Positions 5,593 through 55,134 of a DNA stretch of 64,000 bases are shown in pieces (positions within the stretch are counted from its first letter, which is position 1; every line of letters begins with the position of its first letter). The notes beneath the pieces are model-generated. The model was given only the letters and a program-made list of their open reading frames with translations. It ran no database searches and had not been told where the DNA came from. The DNA is from Clostridia bacterium (GTDB lineage: Bacteria > Bacillota > Clostridia > Monoglobales > Firm-18): positions 11,512 through 75,511 of the forward strand of contig JAZQIO010000006.1 in NCBI GenBank assembly GCA_045541135.1, written 5' to 3'. The position numbers and the translations under genes are program-made.

Positions 5593-5625
5593 TGAATAAT
5601 TAATAATTAATAATGAATAATTATG
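5593..5625. repeat. AATGAATAAT-type short tandem motif directly after a stop codon
   Basis: tgaataattaataattaataatgaataatt. The same motif recurs at 10716-10744 (rc) and 13668-13702, each at a gene 3' end. Confidence 0.5.
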
Positions 5626-5628
5626 GTG

Positions 5629-5657
5629 GAAATCCGCTTTTGGCGGATTTCTTTTTG
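5629..5657 (+). terminator. Rho-independent terminator of the DUF4867-kinase-ETF unit
   Basis: 9-bp stem GAAATCCGC/GCGGATTTC, 5-nt loop, then TTTTT. Confidence 0.7.
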
Positions 5658-5690
5658 TTTGCAATTATCAATTTACCCATTATCAATTAA

Positions 5691-5722
5691 AAAGACCTGT
5701 AAAAATTTTTTACAGGTCTTTA
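5691..5722. terminator. Bidirectional terminator (perfect 16-bp palindrome)
   Basis: AAAGACCTGTAAAAAA/TTTTTTACAGGTCTTT, lying between convergent units (ETF + strand, GH88 - strand). Confidence 0.65.
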
Positions 5723-5801
5723 TTAAAGTGCTTTTACAATTTATAAATCTCTTTAACTTCTTATCTTTTTATTTCTTTTTTTTACATTCCCATAAAATTT
5801 C

Positions 5802-10325: not shown

Positions 10326-10575
10326 GGCTAAGATTTTGGCGACGAACGTTCAAAGGCAATGAAAAGGTAAATGAAGATAGTGATAATTTTTATTTGTAAT
10401 TATAGTTGTTTGGTAGGAATCCGTAGAAACACGGATTCCTTTTTTGCCTTTGAACTATAAACAAACTTCACCCTTGACGTACCATTGTACGCCTTCGGGT
10501 AACCCTACGGTTCAGTTTGTTCATTCTTCATCCAAAATCCCTACGCCTTTTAAGGCTGTGATTTTGGCGATGAAC
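10323..10575. repeat. Composite repeat region B: 25-bp direct repeats flanking a 12-bp inverted repeat, a terminator hairpin and the type-2 core
   Basis: DR TAAGGCTAAGATTTTGGCGACGAAC (10323-10347, begins with the stop TAA) vs TAAGGCTGTGATTTTGGCGATGAAC (10551-10575). IR GTTCAAAGGCAA 10348-10359 / TTGCCTTTGAAC 10444-10455. Core 10460-10527. Confidence 0.55.
10414..10446 (+). terminator. Rho-independent terminator (hairpin B1)
   Basis: AGGAATCCG / CGGATTCCT 9-bp stem followed by TTTTTT. Confidence 0.6.
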
Positions 10576-10617
10576 CTTTATAGTTGATAGTAGATAGTTG
10601 ATAGTGGATAGTTATGG

Positions 10618-10643
10618 AGGGAACGCAATGCGTTCCTTCTTTT
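10618..10643 (+). terminator. Terminator-like hairpin B2 preceded by GATAGTN tandem repeats
   Basis: AGGGAACGC aat GCGTTCCTT stem, then CTTTT. Upstream lies tagttgatagtagatagttgatagtggatagtta. Confidence 0.45.
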
Positions 10644-10680
10644 AAATTGAAAATTATGGATGATAAACTTCGTTTATCTT

Positions 10681-10706
10681 TTTAAAAAGAAATGCAAAGC
10701 ATTTCT
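10681..10706 (-). terminator. Rho-independent terminator of the AraC gene at 10745-11542
   Basis: Minus strand: AGAAATGC ttt GCATTTCT followed by TTTTTAAA. Confidence 0.55.
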
Positions 10707-10715
10707 ACCAAAACT

Positions 10716-10744
10716 ATTCATTATTCATTATTCATTATTCACTG
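10716..10744. repeat. AATGAATAAT-type tandem motif (reverse orientation) abutting the AraC stop codon
   Basis: The rc reads cagtgaataatgaataatgaataatgaatag, immediately 3' of the minus-strand gene ending at 10745. Confidence 0.5.
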
Positions 10745-13683: not shown

Positions 13684-13702
13684 TTAATAATGAATAATGA
13701 AG
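13668..13702. repeat. AATGAATAAT-type tandem motif spanning a stop codon
   Basis: aatgaataatgaatagttaataatgaataatgaa. It supplies the last codons and the stop of the TIM-barrel gene. Confidence 0.5.
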
Positions 13703-13705
13703 GAA

Positions 13706-13937
13706 GGGAATGTAAAAAAAGTCCAGAACGCAAGAAAAAACAAAAAGCAAGATATTATCAATAAAATAATCGAATTAAATTTATGAAAACAAGGTAGAAA
13801 AATCGAAATTGTTCGATTTTTCATAAAATTACTTTTTTCTTGCTATGAACAAACCTCCCCCGAGCCGTACCATCGTACTGTCTCGGGTCACCCCTTCGAT
13901 TCGGTTTGTCCATTCTGAAACATTTTTTCCTATCCCC
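13706..13937. repeat. Intergenic repeat type 2, copy C (232 bp)
   Basis: Left end GGGAATGTAAAAAAAGTCCAGA is identical to copy A; rc of right end is GGGGATAGGAAAAAATGTTTCAGA. Shares the GAACAAACYTCMCC ... GGTTYRGTTTGTCCATTCTGAA core. Confidence 0.6.
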
Positions 13938-13963
13938 TCTAAAACAAAATCAAGGGACTGTAA

Positions 13964-13996
13964 CAAATTTTTACAGTCCATTTTTTATTACACTGA
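13964..13996. terminator. Bidirectional terminator between convergent units
   Basis: GGACTGTAA caaattt TTACAGTCC with T-runs on both strands. Confidence 0.6.
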
Positions 13997-14027
13997 GCAC
14001 CGATGAATAGTGCCCTACTTATAGTGT

Positions 14028-33910: not shown

Positions 33911-34252
33911 TTATTTATTTATATCATTTAAAAGCTTGTTGATATGTGCACCGTGCTCTATAGAATTATCAAGTGTAAACAATATTTCCGGTGTATAGCG
34001 AAGACCAAGTCTGTGAGCAAGCTCCTTACGTACAAAGCCTGCTGCATTTTTTAGTCCTTCAATTGCATCCTTCTGTGCGTTTTCATCACCAAAAACACTG
34101 ATATACGCCTTGCACCAGCGAAGGTCTTTTGTTATATCAACAGCTACCACACTGCAAAGACCCTTAGTAACCCTTGGGTCTTTGAGTTCCCGTATAATTG
34201 AACTTATTTCTTTGCGTGCTTCTTCATTAATTCTGTCTATTCTGTTTGCCAT
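33911..34252 (-). CDS. rbfA: Ribosome-binding factor A
   Basis: MANRIDRINEE... Start set to ATG 34252 after AGGAGAA. The ORF's upstream 16 codons lie inside the repeat element. Confidence 0.85.
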   Translation of the reverse strand: MANRIDRINEEARKEISSIIRELKDPRVTKGLCSVVAVDITKDLRWCKAYISVFGDENAQKDAIEGLKNAAGFVRKELAHRLGLRYTPEILFTLDNSIEHGAHINKLLNDINK

Positions 34253-34264
34253 AAGCAATTCTCC

Positions 34265-34540
34265 TAGCCGAAAGAGAATAATCCGAACCTCGATTTTCAA
34301 AGGTGAATTTCCGCTTTCGTTTTGTTAAAATACTCGGCAATCCATCAAGGATTACCTGCGTTTTTGCCTTACGCAACCAAAAATTCTCTCTTTGAAAATT
34401 CCATGACCTTAAACAGATGGAATTTCGAGCAGATTTTGGTGCGGAAGATGAAGCAAGGCTGACGCCTTGCGAAGATGACAAGCCTGAAGATACCGAAATT
34501 ACGCTGTTTAAGGCGGGTTCGGGTTACTATCTTTCGGCTA
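34265..34540. mobile_element. MITE-like non-coding element type 1, copy 1 (276 bp, ~25-bp TIRs)
   Basis: TIRs TAGCCGAAAGAGAATAATCCGAACC vs rc TAGCCGAAAGATAGTAACCCGAACC. Second copy at 54176-54450 (17 substitutions + 1 indel by hand). TA on both flanks; no conserved ORF. Confidence 0.65.
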
Positions 34541-36787
34541 TCTTGGGATTTCTTCCATTACGAAGCATTCGATAACATCGCCTTCTTTAATGTCATTGAA
34601 TCTTTCGATACCGATACCGCATTCGTAACCTGTAGGAACTTCCTTTGCATCGTCTTTAAATCTCTTAAGTGAATTCATTGTACCTTCGTGTACAACAATA
34701 CCGTCACGTACAATACGAACTTCACAGTTTCTGACAATTTTACCATCTGTTACATAGCAACCGCCGATTGTACCAACGCCTGAAATCTTATATGTCTGAC
34801 GGATTTCTGCATGACCGATAACATTTTCTTTGAATGTAGGCTCAAGCATACCCTTCATAGCGGCTTCGATTTCTTCGATAGCCTGATAAATTACTCTGTA
34901 AAGTCTTACTTCAACATTCTGACGTTCTGCAGATTCCATAGTAGCCGCAGAAGGTCTTACATTAAATCCGACAATAATAGCATTTGAAGCAGAAGCAAGC
35001 ATAATATCAGATTCACTGATTGTACCTGCGGCACCGTGAATAACATTAATTCTTACTTCATCATTTGAAAGCTTAACCAAAGACTGTTTGATTGCTTCAA
35101 CAGAACCCATAACGTCTGCCTTAATGATAATGTTAAGGTCTTTAATCTGACCCTGTTCAATCTGAGTAAACAAAGCATCAAGAGAAACAACTGTCTGTGT
35201 CGACTTGTTGTATTCATCCTTAATTTTCTGCTTTCTCTGTTCTACAACCATACGGGCTTTTCTTTCATCAGTTACGGCATAGAATAAGTCACCGCCTTCG
35301 GGAACTTCAGAAAGGCCAAGAATTTCAACAGGCATACTTGGACCTGCAGATTTTATTCTCTTACCGCCGTCATCAACCATAGCACGTACTTTACCTACTG
35401 CTGTACCTGCTACAACTATATCGCCAACATTAAGTGTACCATTCTGTACCAAAACTGTAGATACAGGACCTCTGCCCTTATCAAGTTTAGCTTCGATAAC
35501 TGTACCCTTAGCCATTCTGTCAGGATTAGCCTTAAGTTCCTTCATATCCGCAACCAAAAGTACCATTTCAAGCAATGTGTCAATATTGTCACCACGTAGA
35601 GCAGAGATCGGAACAACAATTGTGTCACCGCCCCATTCTTCAGGAACAAGACCGTGTTCTGTAAGCTGCTGCTTAACAAGATCAGGATTTGCAGTTTCTT
35701 TATCAATTTTATTGATAGCAACAATAATTGTTACACCTGCAGCTTTAGCATGGTTAATAGCTTCAATAGTCTGAGGCATAATACCGTCATCAGCCGCAAC
35801 AACAAGTATTGCAACGTCAGTAACCATAGCACCGCGAAGACGCATAGCTGTGAACGCTTCATGTCCCGGTGTATCAAGGAAAGTAATATCTCTGTCATTA
35901 ATATGAACTCTGTAAGCACCGATATGCTGTGTAATACCGCCTGCTTCTGTATCTATAACGTGAGTACGTCTGATATAGTCAAGAGTTTTTGTCTTACCGT
36001 GGTCAACGTGACCCATGATAACAACAACCGGTGGACGTGGTTGCAAGCTTTCTTCAGGGTCTTCAACGTCATTGAACAAAATATCTTCGTCTGTAACAAT
36101 AACTTCTTTTTCTACTGTTGCGTTAAATTCAGAAGCAATAAGTGATGCAGTATCAAAGTCAATAAGCTGACTTACAGATGCCATAACACCAATCATCATC
36201 AGACATTTTACAACTTCATTTGCAGGTTTGCCCAATTTTTCGGCAAATTCACCTACAGCAATTTCGTCACCCATATATACTACAACATTTTCGGCAACTT
36301 CTTCTTTTTCCTTCTTTTCCTTAACAAGCTTTTCGTTTTTATTTTCCATCTTATTGCTTGTTTTATTCTTTTTGATTTTCTGCTTTTTATCAGTTTTATT
36401 TGTATCAATATTTTGAGGAACAAGTTCTTCCATTTTTTCAGTATCAAACTTTTCAAGATCAACACTTACAGTTCTTGTGTCAACATATCTTGATTTTTTC
36501 TGAATAGGAGCATCGTCTATAATTTCCTCAACATTTTCAACTACGTCTTCTTTTTTCGCCTTTTTTGTTTCCTTTTTGGACTCAGCATTCTTTTTATCAA
36601 AACCGAAATCTTCTACCTGATATTTTTGTGTATAGTGTTCAAAAACTATATCAAGCTCATTTGCTTCAATAGAACTTTGTGCACTTTTAGCCTTACTTCC
36701 AAAAGTTTGCAACAGTTCTAACATTTCATTTTTATCAACGCCCAAATCTTTAGCTAAGGCACTTATTTTAATTTTAACAGCTGCCAT
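34538..36787 (-). CDS. infB: Translation initiation factor IF-2
   Basis: 749 aa; GTPase domain GHVDHGKT / DTPGH / NKID. The stop TAG 34538-34540 is the terminal TAG of the repeat element. Confidence 0.95.
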
Positions 36788-47720: not shown

Positions 47721-47760
47721 AAATAAAGAATGGAGCTTTTTAAAGCTCCATTCTTTATTT
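47721..47760. terminator. Bidirectional terminator between convergent genes
   Basis: AAATAAAGAATGGAGCTTT / AAAGCTCCATTCTTTATTT 19-bp palindrome. Confidence 0.6.
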
Positions 47761-49534: not shown

Positions 49535-49627
49535 TAATCTGTAGATAAGTGATATTCTGAAATAATATAAGGCATTGACAAAGGACAGCAACTTGAGTCG
49601 CTGTCCTTCGCCTTGCTCAACATTAAC

Positions 49628-49675
49628 AAAGCCGCCCATTCAATTATATATTGAACAGGCGGTTTAAACATTTTT
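49628..49675. terminator. Terminator hairpin between convergent fba and spoVM
   Basis: AAAGCCGCC ... GGCGGTTT stem with an inner AT-rich extension, followed by AAACATTTTT on the plus strand. Confidence 0.4.
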
Positions 49676-49728
49676 GTATGTCTGCAAAGTACTGAATATT
49701 TTATTGTAACTGCTATTTTACTATGTAA

Positions 49729-49800
49729 TCAATTCATCTTAAGAATTTTTTTAAAGAACCCTCTGAACATCTTAGGCATTTTGAACACAACAATTTTCAT
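49729..49800 (-). CDS. spoVM: Stage V sporulation protein M (23-aa amphipathic peptide)
   Basis: AAGGAGGT, 6 nt, ATG. MKIVVFKMPKMFRGFFKKILKMN resembles B. subtilis SpoVM MKFYTIKLPKFLGGIVRAMLGSFRKD. Lies downstream of thiN, as in B. subtilis. Below the ORF-track length cutoff. Confidence 0.7.
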   Translation of the reverse strand: MKIVVFKMPKMFRGFFKKILKMN

Positions 49801-49812
49801 TAAAAGACCTCC

Positions 49813-49974
49813 TTAAAATTTACGGCGTTTAGGTTTGAAAATTATACCAACCAATGCTATAATAAGTACCGACTGCACTACCACCAAAAACCATGCAGGC
49901 AGTGCCAGGGCAAGTAACACCCCAAGGCTGAATGCTGCAATAATACAGGCAATAACCATACACGAAAAAATCAA
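49813..49974 (-). CDS. Small hydrophobic protein (about 53 aa, two TM segments, KPKRRKF tail)
   Basis: GAGGAGGGG SD followed by TTG 49974 (or ATG 49959). (M)IFSCMVIACIIAAFSLGVLLALALPAWFLVVVQSVLIIALVGIIFKPKRRKF. Not in the ORF track. Confidence 0.4.
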   Translation of the reverse strand: MIFSCMVIACIIAAFSLGVLLALALPAWFLVVVQSVLIIALVGIIFKPKRRKF

Positions 49975-50020
49975 AGGCACCCCTCCTCTACTATACTATA
50001 TGAGATGGGTGCCTTTTGTG

Positions 50021-52174: not shown

Positions 52175-54163
52175 TCAGTTCCAGGTTTCCTCCAATGTCA
52201 TTGAAAGTTCGCCGTCAAAATACACATCAATGTAACTCACATTCGAAGAAGACGGCTTTGCAACATTAAATGAGAATGAAAACTCATCCTTGCTGTGTTT
52301 TTTGTAATAAATCTGAGACCCATCCTGATTTACCTTAACCAAAACAGTATCCCTGTCCTGAGGAAGATTTATTGTAATATTTTTCATCTGTGCTGCTTCT
52401 TCTGCCTTTTTAAGTGTTAAATGAATAACAGCACCCTCTGCAACTACATTGCCTTCATATACTGCTTTTTTTCCACCTACGGAATCTTCATCTTCAACAA
52501 ACATACCTGTTACAACATAATGGTCAGGTGCACCGGCTGGGTCAGTACCACCAAGGTCAAGACCGTTATTTTTCAGCCATTCCTTAGCATCCTTAAGCTT
52601 TAATTCTGTAATATTTTCCATTTTAACGCCCTTGATACCCAAATACACGGTTATTTCATCATTTTTTTCCACCATAGTATCTGCCTTGGGCTCTGTTTTT
52701 AAAACCTTGCCGATACTTTCTGTTTCGGTAACCGGCTCTTTTACAACATTGACGGTAAAGTCATAATCCTTTTCATAATTTTTAAGCTCTTTTTCATATT
52801 CCTTTTCCGTCATACTTACAAGATCAGGCATCATAAAGCTGTCAAAAGGAACTGCAACTCTTATGGTTATGGTATGTTTAGCCTTTATAGTATCTCCGGG
52901 CTTAGGATCCTGAGATAAAACAACACCTTCTTTTTGGTCGCTCTTTTCTTCAACAACTTCAATTTTAAAGTTACCGCCGTTTTCCATATCGTATTTTTCA
53001 ATAACAGCCTTGTAATCCATACCCATAAGATTAGGAGTTTCCAGAGTTTTGGTTGTACAACCGGAAAAACCGCCACCTAAAAGTCCCCACAATACAAGCC
53101 ACATAGCAAGGACAATAACCGCAAAGGATGATATAATCGCCAAAGCAACTGCTGTTTTTGTACCCTTTTCGGCAGGCTTTTTATTTTTATCGGTTGTTCT
53201 TCTTCCGTCGGTATGTACAGGTCTGCGTGCTGTACTACCCGCTTCACTATCAGGCTTATGATTAGGCTTAGGCTCGGGCTTTACAGGTTCCATTTTAATT
53301 GTATCACCATAATTAACGGGAACGTCCGGAATAATATGCTCGGATGGCTTTTGCATCGCCTTATTTAAGTCTGCAAGCATTTCTTCGGCAGACTGATACC
53401 GTAAGCTTTGTTCCTTGCTCATAGCCTTTAAAATAATTGCCTCTACAGAAAGTGGAACGGAAATATTAAATTCCTTAGGGCTTACAGGTTTTTCCTGCAT
53501 ATGCTTAATTGCAATTGCAATAGGGCTTTCTCCGTTAAAGGGAAGTATTCCTGTTATAAGCTCGTACATAACAATGCCCAAAGAGTACAGGTCACTTTTT
53601 GCATCGGTATATCCGCCTCTTGCCTGCTCCGGTGAAAAATAATGTACAGAGCCCATTGTACTTTCGCCCATATTTGTGGTTTCGTTTGTAGCCGCACGTG
53701 CTATACCAAAGTCCGTAACCTTAAGCACACCGTCATTTGTAAGAATAATGTTCTGGGGCTTTATGTCACGGTGAATAATACCGTTTTTATGTGCACGGTC
53801 AAGTGCAGAACAAATCTGTATTGCATATTCAACAGTTTCCTGCCATGAAAGCATACCGTTTGCATCAATATATTCTTTTAAAGTCTGACCCTCAACATAT
53901 TCCATAACGATGTAATGAATGTCACCGTCGTGACCAACATCATAAACATTAACAATATTAGGGCTTGAAATTGTTGCGGCAACCTGAGCTTCCTTGTTGA
54001 ATCTTTCTAAAAATTCCTTATCATTTACAAATTCGCTTTTTAAAATTTTAACTGCAACATTTCTGTTAAGCAAACGGCAATGTGCAAGGTAAACATTTGC
54101 CATACCTCCGCTGCCTATTTCTTTTAATAATTCATATCTGTTTCCCAAAATCATACCAATCAT
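52175..54163 (-). CDS. pknB: Ser/Thr protein kinase with PASTA repeats (PrkC/PknB)
   Basis: GSGGMANVY...VAVK, HRDIKPQNIL, DFGIA; one TM, then PASTA-like repeats. Start set to ATG 54163 after GGGAGGT. The ORF's upstream 16 codons lie in the repeat element. Confidence 0.9.
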   Translation of the reverse strand: MIGMILGNRYELLKEIGSGGMANVYLAHCRLLNRNVAVKILKSEFVNDKEFLERFNKEAQVAATISSPNIVNVYDVGHDGDIHYIVMEYVEGQTLKEYIDANGMLSWQETVEYAIQICSALDRAHKNGIIHRDIKPQNIILTNDGVLKVTDFGIARAATNETTNMGESTMGSVHYFSPEQARGGYTDAKSDLYSLGIVMYELITGILPFNGESPIAIAIKHMQEKPVSPKEFNISVPLSVEAIILKAMSKEQSLRYQSAEEMLADLNKAMQKPSEHIIPDVPVNYGDTIKMEPVKPEPKPNHKPDSEAGSTARRPVHTDGRRTTDKNKKPAEKGTKTAVALAIISSFAVIVLAMWLVLWGLLGGGFSGCTTKTLETPNLMGMDYKAVIEKYDMENGGNFKIEVVEEKSDQKEGVVLSQDPKPGDTIKAKHTITIRVAVPFDSFMMPDLVSMTEKEYEKELKNYEKDYDFTVNVVKEPVTETESIGKVLKTEPKADTMVEKNDEITVYLGIKGVKMENITELKLKDAKEWLKNNGLDLGGTDPAGAPDHYVVTGMFVEDEDSVGGKKAVYEGNVVAEGAVIHLTLKKAEEAAQMKNITINLPQDRDTVLVKVNQDGSQIYYKKHSKDEFSFSFNVAKPSSSNVSYIDVYFDGELSMTLEETWN

Positions 54164-54175
54164 AATCAAACCTCC

Positions 54176-54450
54176 CAGCCGAAAGATAATAATCCGAACC
54201 TCGATTTTCAAAGGTGAATTTTCGCTTTCGTTTTGTTAAAATACTCGGCAATCCGTCAGGATTACCTGCGTTTTTGCCTTACGCAACCAAAAATTTTCTC
54301 TTTAAAAATTCCTTGACCTTAAACAGATGGAATTTTGAGCAGATTATGGTGCGGAAGATGATGCAAGGCTGACACCTTGCAAAGATGACAAGCCTAAAGA
54401 TGTCGAAATTACGCTGTTTAAGGCGGATTCAGGTTACTATCTTTCGGCTA
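54176..54450. mobile_element. MITE-like non-coding element type 1, copy 2 (275 bp)
   Basis: Collinear with 34265-34540 along its full length. TIR left CAGCCGAAAGATAATAATCCGAACC, right rc TAGCCGAAAGATAGTAACCTGAATC. Lies between the stp stop and the pknB SD. Confidence 0.65.
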
Positions 54451-55134
54451 CGCCTTTATGATAACTGCGGTAATGTTATCCTTACCACCGCATTGGTTTG
54501 CCGCATCTATAAGCTTTTCAACAATTTCACTTACCTTGGTATTTGCAAGTATATCCGCAATTTCATTTTCTTCAACGTAAGAGCTTAATCCGTCACTGCA
54601 TATAAGTATGTAATCATTTTCCATAAGCTCATGTGTAACACAGTCCACAAGAATATTTTTTTCCGTACCAACCGCACGTGTAATAAGGTTACGTTGAGGG
54701 TGATACTTCGCCTGTTCCTCTGTAATTGTACCGCTGTCTATAAGTTGTTGCACAATAGAATGATCTTTAGTAATCTGTTTTAGGATACCACCGCTGTAAA
54801 GGTAAGCTCTGCTGTCGCCAACATATGCTATGTTTGCTGTAGATCCAAGTATTTCACAAAGTACAACAGTTGTACCCATACCCGAAAGACCGGGGGTTTC
54901 AACAGCCATTTTGTATACCAGGGCGTTGGCATTTATAATTGATTCTTTAAGCCCCACTCCCTGAAGCATAGACTTTTTGATTTCCTCTACTGTCACAGAG
55001 CTTGCGGTTTCACCGCCATTATGACCACCCATACCATCTGCAACAACCGCCCATTTTGCGGATTTGTCAATATAAAAGTTGTCCTGATTTGTCGCTCGTA
55101 CCAGACCAATGTCTGTAGCACCATACATTTTCAT
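54448..55134 (-). CDS. stp: PP2C-family Ser/Thr phosphatase (Stp/PrpC)
   Basis: ADGMGGHNGGE and CSDGLS motifs. The stop TAG 54448-54450 is the terminal TAG of the repeat element. Confidence 0.9.
   Translation of the reverse strand: MKMYGATDIGLVRATNQDNFYIDKSAKWAVVADGMGGHNGGETASSVTVEEIKKSMLQGVGLKESIINANALVYKMAVETPGLSGMGTTVVLCEILGSTANIAYVGDSRAYLYSGGILKQITKDHSIVQQLIDSGTITEEQAKYHPQRNLITRAVGTEKNILVDCVTHELMENDYILICSDGLSSYVEENEIADILANTKVSEIVEKLIDAANQCGGKDNITAVIIKA

Follow-up and report, generated by a model that had tools for sequence, protein, structure and literature searches.

Between the genes of the Ser/Thr phosphatase Stp and the Ser/Thr kinase PknB, in a 64,000-nucleotide stretch of DNA from an uncultured gut clostridium (Clostridia bacterium, NCBI GenBank assembly GCA_045541135.1, contig JAZQIO010000006.1, positions 11,512 to 75,511 of the forward strand; "the window" below is this whole stretch), lies a MITE, a miniature transposable element with inverted repeats. 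It is a non-coding, multi-copy unit, bounded by terminal inverted repeats (TIRs), that duplicates a TA target and is present in some genomes and absent from others at the same site. In our judgement it is very probably a non-autonomous TIR transposon mobilised in trans by an IS630-type enzyme, with a modest shift in the Stp:PknB ratio as the consequence of its insertion. The family is previously undescribed and high-copy in uncultured gut Clostridia, and the insertion is of a routine MITE kind; what goes beyond the routine is confined to a conserved and covarying interior, a modular organisation with a sister family, and an orientation bias at ribosome-binding sites. No published description of the family was found in the literature, the catalogue of the large MITE survey PMC11602168 lying outside that comparison. 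Throughout, "sense" is used for the window's minus strand, the one that the operon transcript reads.

The window holds two copies, copy 2 between stp and pknB and copy 1 between infB and rbfA. When 54101-54520 was compared with the window by blastn, a single further strong match appeared at 34250-34540 (92.8% over 291 nt, E = 8e-122), and in a self-comparison of all 64 kb this pair is by far the strongest repeat. In a global alignment, copy 2 (54176-54450, exactly the element with its two flanking dinucleotides) and copy 1 (34265-34540) differ by 17 substitutions, of which 13 are transitions, and by one 1-nt gap (tccatcaagg against tccgtc-agg), which makes them 93.5% identical over 276 columns. 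A preliminary description of this DNA had called the copies collinear over their full length at about 93% and had counted the same 17 substitutions and single indel by hand, and it had judged the TIRs of copy 2 the more decayed; ungapped matches are 20/25 there and 21/25 in copy 1. The similarity stops at the TIR ends, and the few matches beyond are the ribosome-binding site and start codon. The neighbours are unrelated: copy 2 lies between genes for a PP2C phosphatase and a Pkinase-plus-PASTA kinase, copy 1 between those for IF-2 and RbfA. With the similarity ending at the TIRs and dozens more copies elsewhere, the view taken in that description, that a discrete unit has been dispersed and no segmental duplication is involved, holds.

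Filled and empty alleles are available at both loci. The stp-pknB junctions were gathered through Stp homologues and the contigs encoding them, and the infB-rbfA junctions through contigs encoding the window's exact RbfA. At stp-pknB the element is present in four samples (L001, L144, L145 and L146), which encode an Stp 99-100% identical to that of the window, and absent from six contigs (L147-L152), where Stp identity falls to 84-89%. The sequence of the empty junction is GC(G/T)TAGGAGGTTTGATTATG or differs from it slightly; it begins GC(G/T)TAGGAGG, its stop codon overlaps the ribosome-binding site, and its spacer is 11-12 nt. The ancestral junction is thus stp-TAGGAGGTTTGATTATG-pknB, in which stop codon and ribosome-binding site overlap; the insertion has separated two genes that are normally tightly linked, as had been proposed. 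On the two points by which the preliminary description had asked to be judged, alignment software reproduces its hand count and the orthologous junction varies in the presence of the element. A protein scan of metagenome contigs with Stp gave one close, truncated relative (L124) and otherwise distant homologues only. At infB-rbfA the element is found in L002 and is absent from L003, L004 and L005, where the junction reads ...AAGATAGGGAGGAATTGCTAATG and the spacer is 13 nt long. Since the contigs without it match the window flanks at 99.4-100% identity, copy 1 is polymorphic within one population. Comparison of filled with empty alleles leaves a single TA in the empty site at both window loci; the second TA of the stp-pknB duplication later became TG in the window lineage. 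Among carriers the divergence of the element is similar to that of the flanking DNA (in L144, 2 of 273 positions are changed, against 0.84% overall), and the stp-pknB insertion is therefore stably inherited and tolerated.

The core measures 271-272 bp and is bounded in both window copies by TIRs of ~24 bp (GCCGAAAGA..), the family consensus being GCCGAAAGAGARTAATCCGAAC. Those of copy 2 are GCCGAAAGATAATAATCCGAACC and, as reverse complement, GCCGAAAGATAGTAACCTGAATCC. Repeat finding shows the arms of the two copies to be 22-25 nt long and 86-88% complementary (86%/22 nt and 88%/25 nt), and the TIR pattern occurs 3 times in the window, where chance predicts 0.00. Read in sense, copy 2 is laid out as stp...GCG-TA-(GCCGAAAG...CTTTCGGC)-TG-GGAGG-TTTGATT-ATG(pknB), and copy 1 in like fashion as infB...AAGA-TA-(G...C)-TA-GGAGAATTGCTT-ATG(rbfA). 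The first base of the copy 2 core is the G at 54448, and the open reading frame (ORF) 54448-55134 ends in TAG there; at copy 1 the TA at 34539-34540 and the G at 34538 form the infB stop TAG, and the TA at 34265-34266 adjoins the rbfA ribosome-binding site. The stp-pknB pair is flanked upstream by rlmN and downstream by rsgA, the usual stp-prkC neighbourhood of Firmicutes. Coordinates are collected in Table 1.

Table 1. Features of the element, its host genes and related units. Positions are in the window unless a contig is named.
Feature	Position	Strand	Remark
MITE copy 2 with both flanking dinucleotides	54176..54450	-	collinear with copy 1 at 93.5%; missing from relatives' junction
Upstream TA of target-site duplication	54449..54450	-	with G 54448 forms stp stop TAG (54448-54450)
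Sense-5' TIR (GCCGAAAGATAGTAACCTGAATCC)	54425..54448	-	
Sense-3' TIR (plus strand GCCGAAAGATAATAATCCGAACCT)	54178..54201	-	
Downstream copy of target-site duplication, TG not TA	54176..54177	-	from sequence and empty-site comparison
pknB Shine-Dalgarno GGAGG (54171-54175), 7-nt spacer, ATG (54161-54163)	54161..54175	-	directly 3' of element
Conserved internal hairpin GGTAATCC-TGA-CGGATTGCC, then GAGTATTTT	54247..54266	-	compensatory changes in helix 9
Central hairpin GCAAGG-TGTC-AGCCTTGC	54363..54380	-	similar central segment in sister family B
MITE copy 1 between infB and rbfA	34265..34540	-	orientation relative to operon as copy 2
stp (PP2C Ser/Thr phosphatase, 228 aa), intact	54448..55134	-	homologues named Stp1/IreP
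pknB/prkC (Ser/Thr kinase with PASTA domains, 662 aa), intact	52175..54163	-	Pkinase and PASTA domains from ATG
infB (IF-2), upstream neighbour of copy 1	34538..36787	-	
rbfA, downstream neighbour of copy 1	33911..34252	-	
Solo modules, 5' type	L011:4173-4233, L064:5239-5300, L028:7541-7600, L114:4281-4343		
Solo modules, 3' type	L031:654-713, L027:3266-3325, L113:3312-3372		
158-bp internal-deletion form of element	L017:4246-4404		
Sister family (B)	L077:4119-4400, L105:5986-6268, L108:5327-5607; flanks of L047, L054, L013, L089, L063, L117		

Insertion took place exactly in the TA of the stp stop codon, and because this TA and the element's first G rebuild TAG, Stp is unchanged. Nothing in the Stp protein, its stop codon, the ribosome-binding site of pknB or the reading frame of PknB has been disrupted, and empty-site relatives carry the same Shine-Dalgarno, spacer and ATG of pknB. 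What has changed is the distance: an overlap-type junction with 11 nt from stop to start has become one of 285 nt, and pknB has moved 274 bases away. The change of TA to TG at 54176-54177 also turns the pknB ribosome-binding region into GGGAGG (TGGGAGG in place of TAGGAGG). An altered Stp/PknB expression ratio is plausible from this arrangement. The element would be transcribed within the operon and would fold into a Y shape closed by a TIR stem of ~25 bp. Ribosomes finishing stp would no longer re-initiate at pknB 11 nt downstream, with loss of termination-reinitiation coupling, and translation of pknB would have to begin de novo, from a ribosome-binding site that directly follows the long ~25-bp helix on its 3' side. 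That helix is itself a plausible target of a double-strand RNase, by likeness to Correia elements, whose TIR stem is an RNase III substrate in Neisseria (PMC2649163, PMC10969869). The net effect would be a modest, strain-specific shift in the Stp:PknB ratio in which neither gene is lost.

The ribosome-binding spacer differs between filled and empty alleles at infB-rbfA as well. The spacer is TAGGAGAATTGCTTATG in the filled and TAGGGAGGAATTGCTAATG in the empty allele (window 34253-34266 and L003:674-686), which amounts to 3 differences in 14 nt against about 0.4% in flanks that are 99.4-100% identical; the corresponding rbfA ribosome-binding spacers are GGAGAATTGCTT and GGGAGGAATTGCTA. Together with the change of TA to TG at stp-pknB, these differences could reflect post-insertion re-tuning or a mutagenic insertion.

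A census of copies, which the preliminary description had proposed, reveals dozens of dispersed members. We scanned one genome per GTDB species with an 18-base TIR pattern, which occurs in at least 118 stretches. Among the 118 stretches listed, 12 have no match to the family profile, and 7 of these, from genomes outside the Clostridia, look like the chance matches expected with an 18-base pattern. The remaining stretches come from metagenome-assembled genomes (MAGs) of uncultured gut Clostridia from humans, roe deer, sheep, goat and buffalo. Together, L006-L123 and the window supply 44 full-length copies, 43 of which were used to build the profile, one more being too short to align. By this profile the family has members in at least 34 species-level assemblies and at up to at least 24 places in one MAG. 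Full-length copies measure 241-282 bp, mostly 270-277 bp, and the pairwise identity of the 43 ranges from 61% to 100% (median 83%). Copy 1 is nearer to a copy at an unrelated locus of the species-level MAG JAZQAN (L072:5444-5718, 97.1%) than to copy 2 (92.8%), a closeness that reflects either cross-species subfamilies or movement of the element between species.

No frame is open in all of the copies and no start codon is conserved, by which a hidden small ORF was ruled out. The whole window gave no match in Rfam 15 at gathering score, and with E values up to 10 the region 54100-54520 drew only chance-level matches (E 0.8-4.6) to eukaryotic snoRNA and lncRNA models. The element has no match in phage and plasmid collections at blastn sensitivity, and the TIR pattern has 0 matches in viral contigs.

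The family also occurs in parts. Solo hairpin modules of ~57 nt correspond to the element's first or last ~57 nt, and most are bounded by GCCGAAAG...CTTTCGGC and TA. The 271-bp element looks like two mini-elements around a central segment, and one form with an internal deletion was recovered (Table 1). A sister MITE family of ~280 bp (family B) has another TIR (GGCATCAGAGGATCGAACCCC) and is likewise TA-flanked; its central segment GGCTTGTCGTCCTCGAAAGGCGTCAGCC resembles that of the 271-bp family, and the two often stand head-to-tail with one TA in common. Some flanks resemble tRNA 3' ends (GGTTCGA..) and raised the idea of tRNA-adjacent insertion, but ARAGORN calls no tRNA there and the sequences are termini of the sister family.

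Target sites point to the kind of enzyme involved. TA stands on both sides in 36 of the 44 full-length copies, and the other 8 deviate at one base. Reconstructed targets are roughly C-Y-TA-R-G and roughly symmetric around TA; many are TA(A)GGAGG, a stop codon followed by a ribosome-binding site, and the purine run after TA may partly reflect closeness to ribosome-binding sites. Operon junctions are hit because of this TA(A)GGAGG-like preference and because intergenic space is small. The strict TA duplication and the N-TA-N or CTAG-like target are those of IS630/Tc1-mariner elements, and on the basis of this duplication and target profile the transposase is most likely of that type. A DDE transposase encoded elsewhere would bind the TIRs and integrate the element at TA in a roughly Y-TA-R context, with which the ancestral stp-pknB junction agrees.

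Several candidates for an autonomous partner were tried and rejected. Multi-copy ORFs among 707 long ORF segments are MurA-like, FtsW, amylase, ClpB and similar; ORFs beside solo ends are housekeeping genes (ParB, GidB, RibF, FtsZ and others); and a generic scan for inverted repeats brought up only an amidase locus. No TIR pairs 0.7-2.6 kb apart around a transposase ORF occur in the window and related loci. The amidase locus (L026:4068-6027) has an N-acetylmuramoyl-L-alanine amidase gene between several inverted segments of 15-17 nt and tandem palindromes like GACAGATGGGGGACGCACCTTTTTGCAAAGGAACATCCCCCACTGTC, and its repeats are an unrelated type found in one MAG.

The predicted fold of the element is Y-shaped, with the TIR stem closing two long arms, and the window copies have fold z-scores of -5.0 and -6.8 relative to shuffled sequence. 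A consensus fold on the 43-copy alignment comprises 77 pairs with 97.2% of cells paired; 28 of these pairs changed on both sides, against 12.4 +/- 2.1 in shuffled alignments and 6-16 with partners slid. This suggests that the Y-fold is either under constraint or kept by a mutational process specific to hairpins. Because the antisense strand folds equally well (consensus energy -74 kcal/mol, against -63 kcal/mol for sense, with equal mean single-sequence energies), the fold is not assignable to a transcript strand. The idea that the G-U excess (256 G-U against 40 A-C) marks the sense RNA as the folded strand was rejected as circular, since the reverse-complement alignment has G-U pairs of its own and its fold is no worse. 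An internal promoter or terminator was also considered and set aside, consensus matches being weak and non-conserved: no promoter hexamers are conserved among the copies, only copy 2 reaching a 9/12 match, and the internal hairpin at 54247-54266 is terminator-like by a lenient rule only.

Orientation relative to genes was scored with greedy gene calls and a symmetric test for a Shine-Dalgarno sequence plus start codon, a crude count of open frames into the element ends having been discarded for its spurious antisense frames. Over all co-directional gene contexts there are 16 sense and 8 antisense copies, which with crude gene calls is not significant. Close to the element the skew is stronger. 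Gene starts within 20 nt number 13 in sense and 1 in antisense, and Shine-Dalgarno sequences within 3 nt of the flanking TA number 9 and 1 (all different genes; two-sided binomial p about 0.02). Upstream genes that end inside the element, at a gene-call offset of -3 or -17, comprise 8 unique sense cases and 1 antisense case (L052, -13). Antisense copies are not absolute blocks, since 7 genes lie 18-33 nt beyond them. Behind the bias stands either selection acting on some asymmetric internal feature or a preference of insertion linked to replication.

Some of these results weigh against a plain, trans-mobilised MITE as the full account. Mean column conservation over the 43 copies is 0.88 in the interior and 0.92-0.94 in the TIRs, and a covarying, well-conserved interior is not required of a plain cut-and-paste element. 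The sense strand of copy 2 has a weak terminator-like hairpin. The 9:1 sense bias at ribosome-binding-site junctions is not explained by the TIRs: the two are nearly identical, and so the junction sequence itself cannot explain it. In addition, neither a transposase gene nor a longer element with these TIRs was found in ~0.84 Mb of related DNA, which consists of draft MAG fragments.

Much of this would be expected if the element were a mobile RNA module that has been co-opted, one that persists at operon junctions since its structured sense transcript is useful there, perhaps as a processing or stabilising site that fixes how strongly the neighbouring cistrons are expressed relative to one another, or as an internal attenuator or promoter, with transposition as its means of spread. 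Strong covariation in all internal helices, an interior nearly as conserved as the TIRs, the sense excess at nearby Shine-Dalgarno sequences and gene starts and among upstream genes ending inside the element, and the specific spacer differences at infB-rbfA and stp-pknB are all in its favour. We nevertheless think it rather unlikely. Both strands fold, promoter hexamers are not conserved, antisense copies are tolerated upstream of 7 genes, and the overall co-directional bias is merely 16:8. Presence is polymorphic within a population 99.4-100% identical, which suggests near-neutrality, and paired hairpin changes can also come from template switching without selection. The reading can be put more specifically, as a mobile and structurally constrained intercistronic module, kept almost only in sense at stop/Shine-Dalgarno junctions, that acts in RNA processing, stability or attenuation to re-set Stp against PknB and IF-2 against RbfA, with the spacer re-tuned afterwards; in this form we regard it as doubtful.

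It is considerably less probable that the element moves as single-stranded DNA, through a tyrosine/HUH transposase of the IS200/IS605 or RAYT kind that recognises hairpins, with TA as a target or cleavage motif and no duplication. Conserved, covarying hairpins whose structured strand is ambiguous would fit such an enzyme, as would solo ~57-nt hairpin modules with the same termini; the gene-orientation bias could follow from a replication-strand bias, and all four loci of the one complete genome are in the same orientation. The ends, however, are inverted repeats of ~24 bp with TA on both sides, which are not IS200/IS605 features, and the target is roughly symmetric around TA, as when a dimer binds double-stranded DNA. 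None of the copies has a visible Y1-transposase gene beside it. REP and REPIN sequences moved by RAYT are palindromes of 20-40 bp that carry a GTAG or CGTC tag and do not duplicate their target (PMC3733652). The present unit of 271 bp is far longer than REP or REPIN units, its solo modules are of ~57 bp, the base before TAG varies so that no GTAG tag is conserved, and TA is duplicated. The PATE elements derived from IS200/IS605 have sub-terminal hairpins without TIRs, make no target duplication and insert 3' of a 4-5-nt target, whereas the ends here are mutually inverted and TA stands on both sides. Finally, a non-mobile origin, whether as a conserved cis-regulatory RNA (leader or riboswitch) or by local duplication or gene conversion, might be suggested by the shared orientation of both copies and their intercistronic place in conserved operons, but it is refuted by the empty alleles at both window sites and by more than 40 dispersed copies beside unrelated genes in 34 assemblies, with TIRs, TA duplications and no Rfam match also against it, and we give it practically no weight.

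The non-autonomous TIR transposon remains our preferred reading, and it agrees with what is known of such elements. Delihas characterises bacterial MITEs by their TIRs, by termini in TA, by duplication of the target and by a long stem-loop (PMC2229807); in the present family we find TIRs, a target duplication seen between filled and empty sites, a small non-coding body and many dispersed copies. The closest analogues are the Correia elements (24-bp TIR, TA, no known transposase) and RUP (TA, IS630-Spn1). Correia elements (CREE/NEMIS) of Neisseria are likewise non-coding and multi-copy, with TIRs of ~24-26 bp and a terminal TA that is duplicated (PMC2229807). They are often co-transcribed with their neighbours, their TIRs form a long stem and no cognate transposase is known (PMC2229807, PMC10969869), and by analogy the same may be said of the 271-bp family. 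Its members are about twice as long (271 against 100-155 bp), have a three-way branched interior with covarying arms, and reside in a Gram-positive gut anaerobe; the likeness is architectural only. Correia elements are further marked by an IHF site, by promoters generated at their ends and by RNase III cleavage, and in the 271-bp family promoter hexamers are not conserved. The consensus GCCGAAAGAGARTAATCCGAAC has no known resemblance to the Neisseria Correia inverted repeat. RUP of pneumococcus, also a Firmicute MITE with TIRs and TA targets, is proposed to be mobilised by IS630-Spn1 and serves as the model of an element moved in trans by an IS630-type enzyme (PMC2229807). It is 107 bp long, has no further structural signature of the kind seen in the conserved, covarying interior here, and has TIRs that resemble a known insertion sequence of the same genome, whereas no parent insertion sequence was found for the 271-bp family.

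Precedents for an insertion into transcribed DNA or into an operon are given by ERIC and Chunjie (PMC10969869); neither these two nor Correia elements and RUP are known to be related in sequence to the 271-bp family. The ERIC/IRU repeats of enterobacteria are, like the present family, small palindromic repeats in transcribed intergenic regions, and in Yersinia an ERIC at gene 3' ends changes the transcript level by unmasking an RNase E site (PMC10969869); they measure ~127 bp with TIRs of 7 bp (PMC2229807) and are unrelated in sequence and host. Chunjie, a ~235-bp MITE of Geobacter uraniireducens, has conserved TIRs, direct repeats and many full and partial copies (PMC10969869), and one copy sits in an operon whose structure was reportedly not disturbed (Chen et al. 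2008, PMC2516098, cited in PMC10969869). The 271-bp family differs in host and sequence, in rebuilding the upstream stop and adjoining the downstream ribosome-binding site, and in its solo modules and a sister family with which it has a TA in common. The bcr1 repeats of the Bacillus cereus group are MITE-like and, again, found in a Firmicute. According to Okstad, Tourasse and co-workers they are reportedly transcribed and have a predicted structure kept by compensatory changes. They measure ~155 bp, have a different target duplication and show no sequence similarity to the present family.

The window contains other repeats besides. Short intergenic repeats pair 13883-13937 with 2006-2060 (56 nt, 87.5%) and, inverted, 10684-10741 with 5593-5656 (64 nt, 81%), and two intergenic stretches, 10453-10580 and 13827-13945, have two matching places apiece in the related MAG L012; the genome of the window probably has further small repeat families. 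Two near-perfect palindromes of ~40 nt between convergent genes (47721-47760 and 5687-5726) are probably bidirectional terminators. There is no tRNA gene anywhere in the window (1-64000), and intergenic gaps longer than 340 bp occur at 2063-2710, 10326-10744, 13684-14027 and 49535-50020.

In Firmicutes, Stp and PknB make up the principal Ser/Thr signalling pair of eukaryote-like type, and tight linkage in one operon usually fixes the balance between them. The insertion described here is a natural, strain-specific one that breaks this linkage and leaves both genes undamaged. The family as a whole is abundant and polymorphic even among populations 99.4-100% identical, could serve as a strain marker, and is a likely source of contig breaks in these MAGs. 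With matched empty alleles in public metagenomes, the stp-pknB junction is a ready natural experiment for studying how translation is coupled in a gut lineage that is uncultured.

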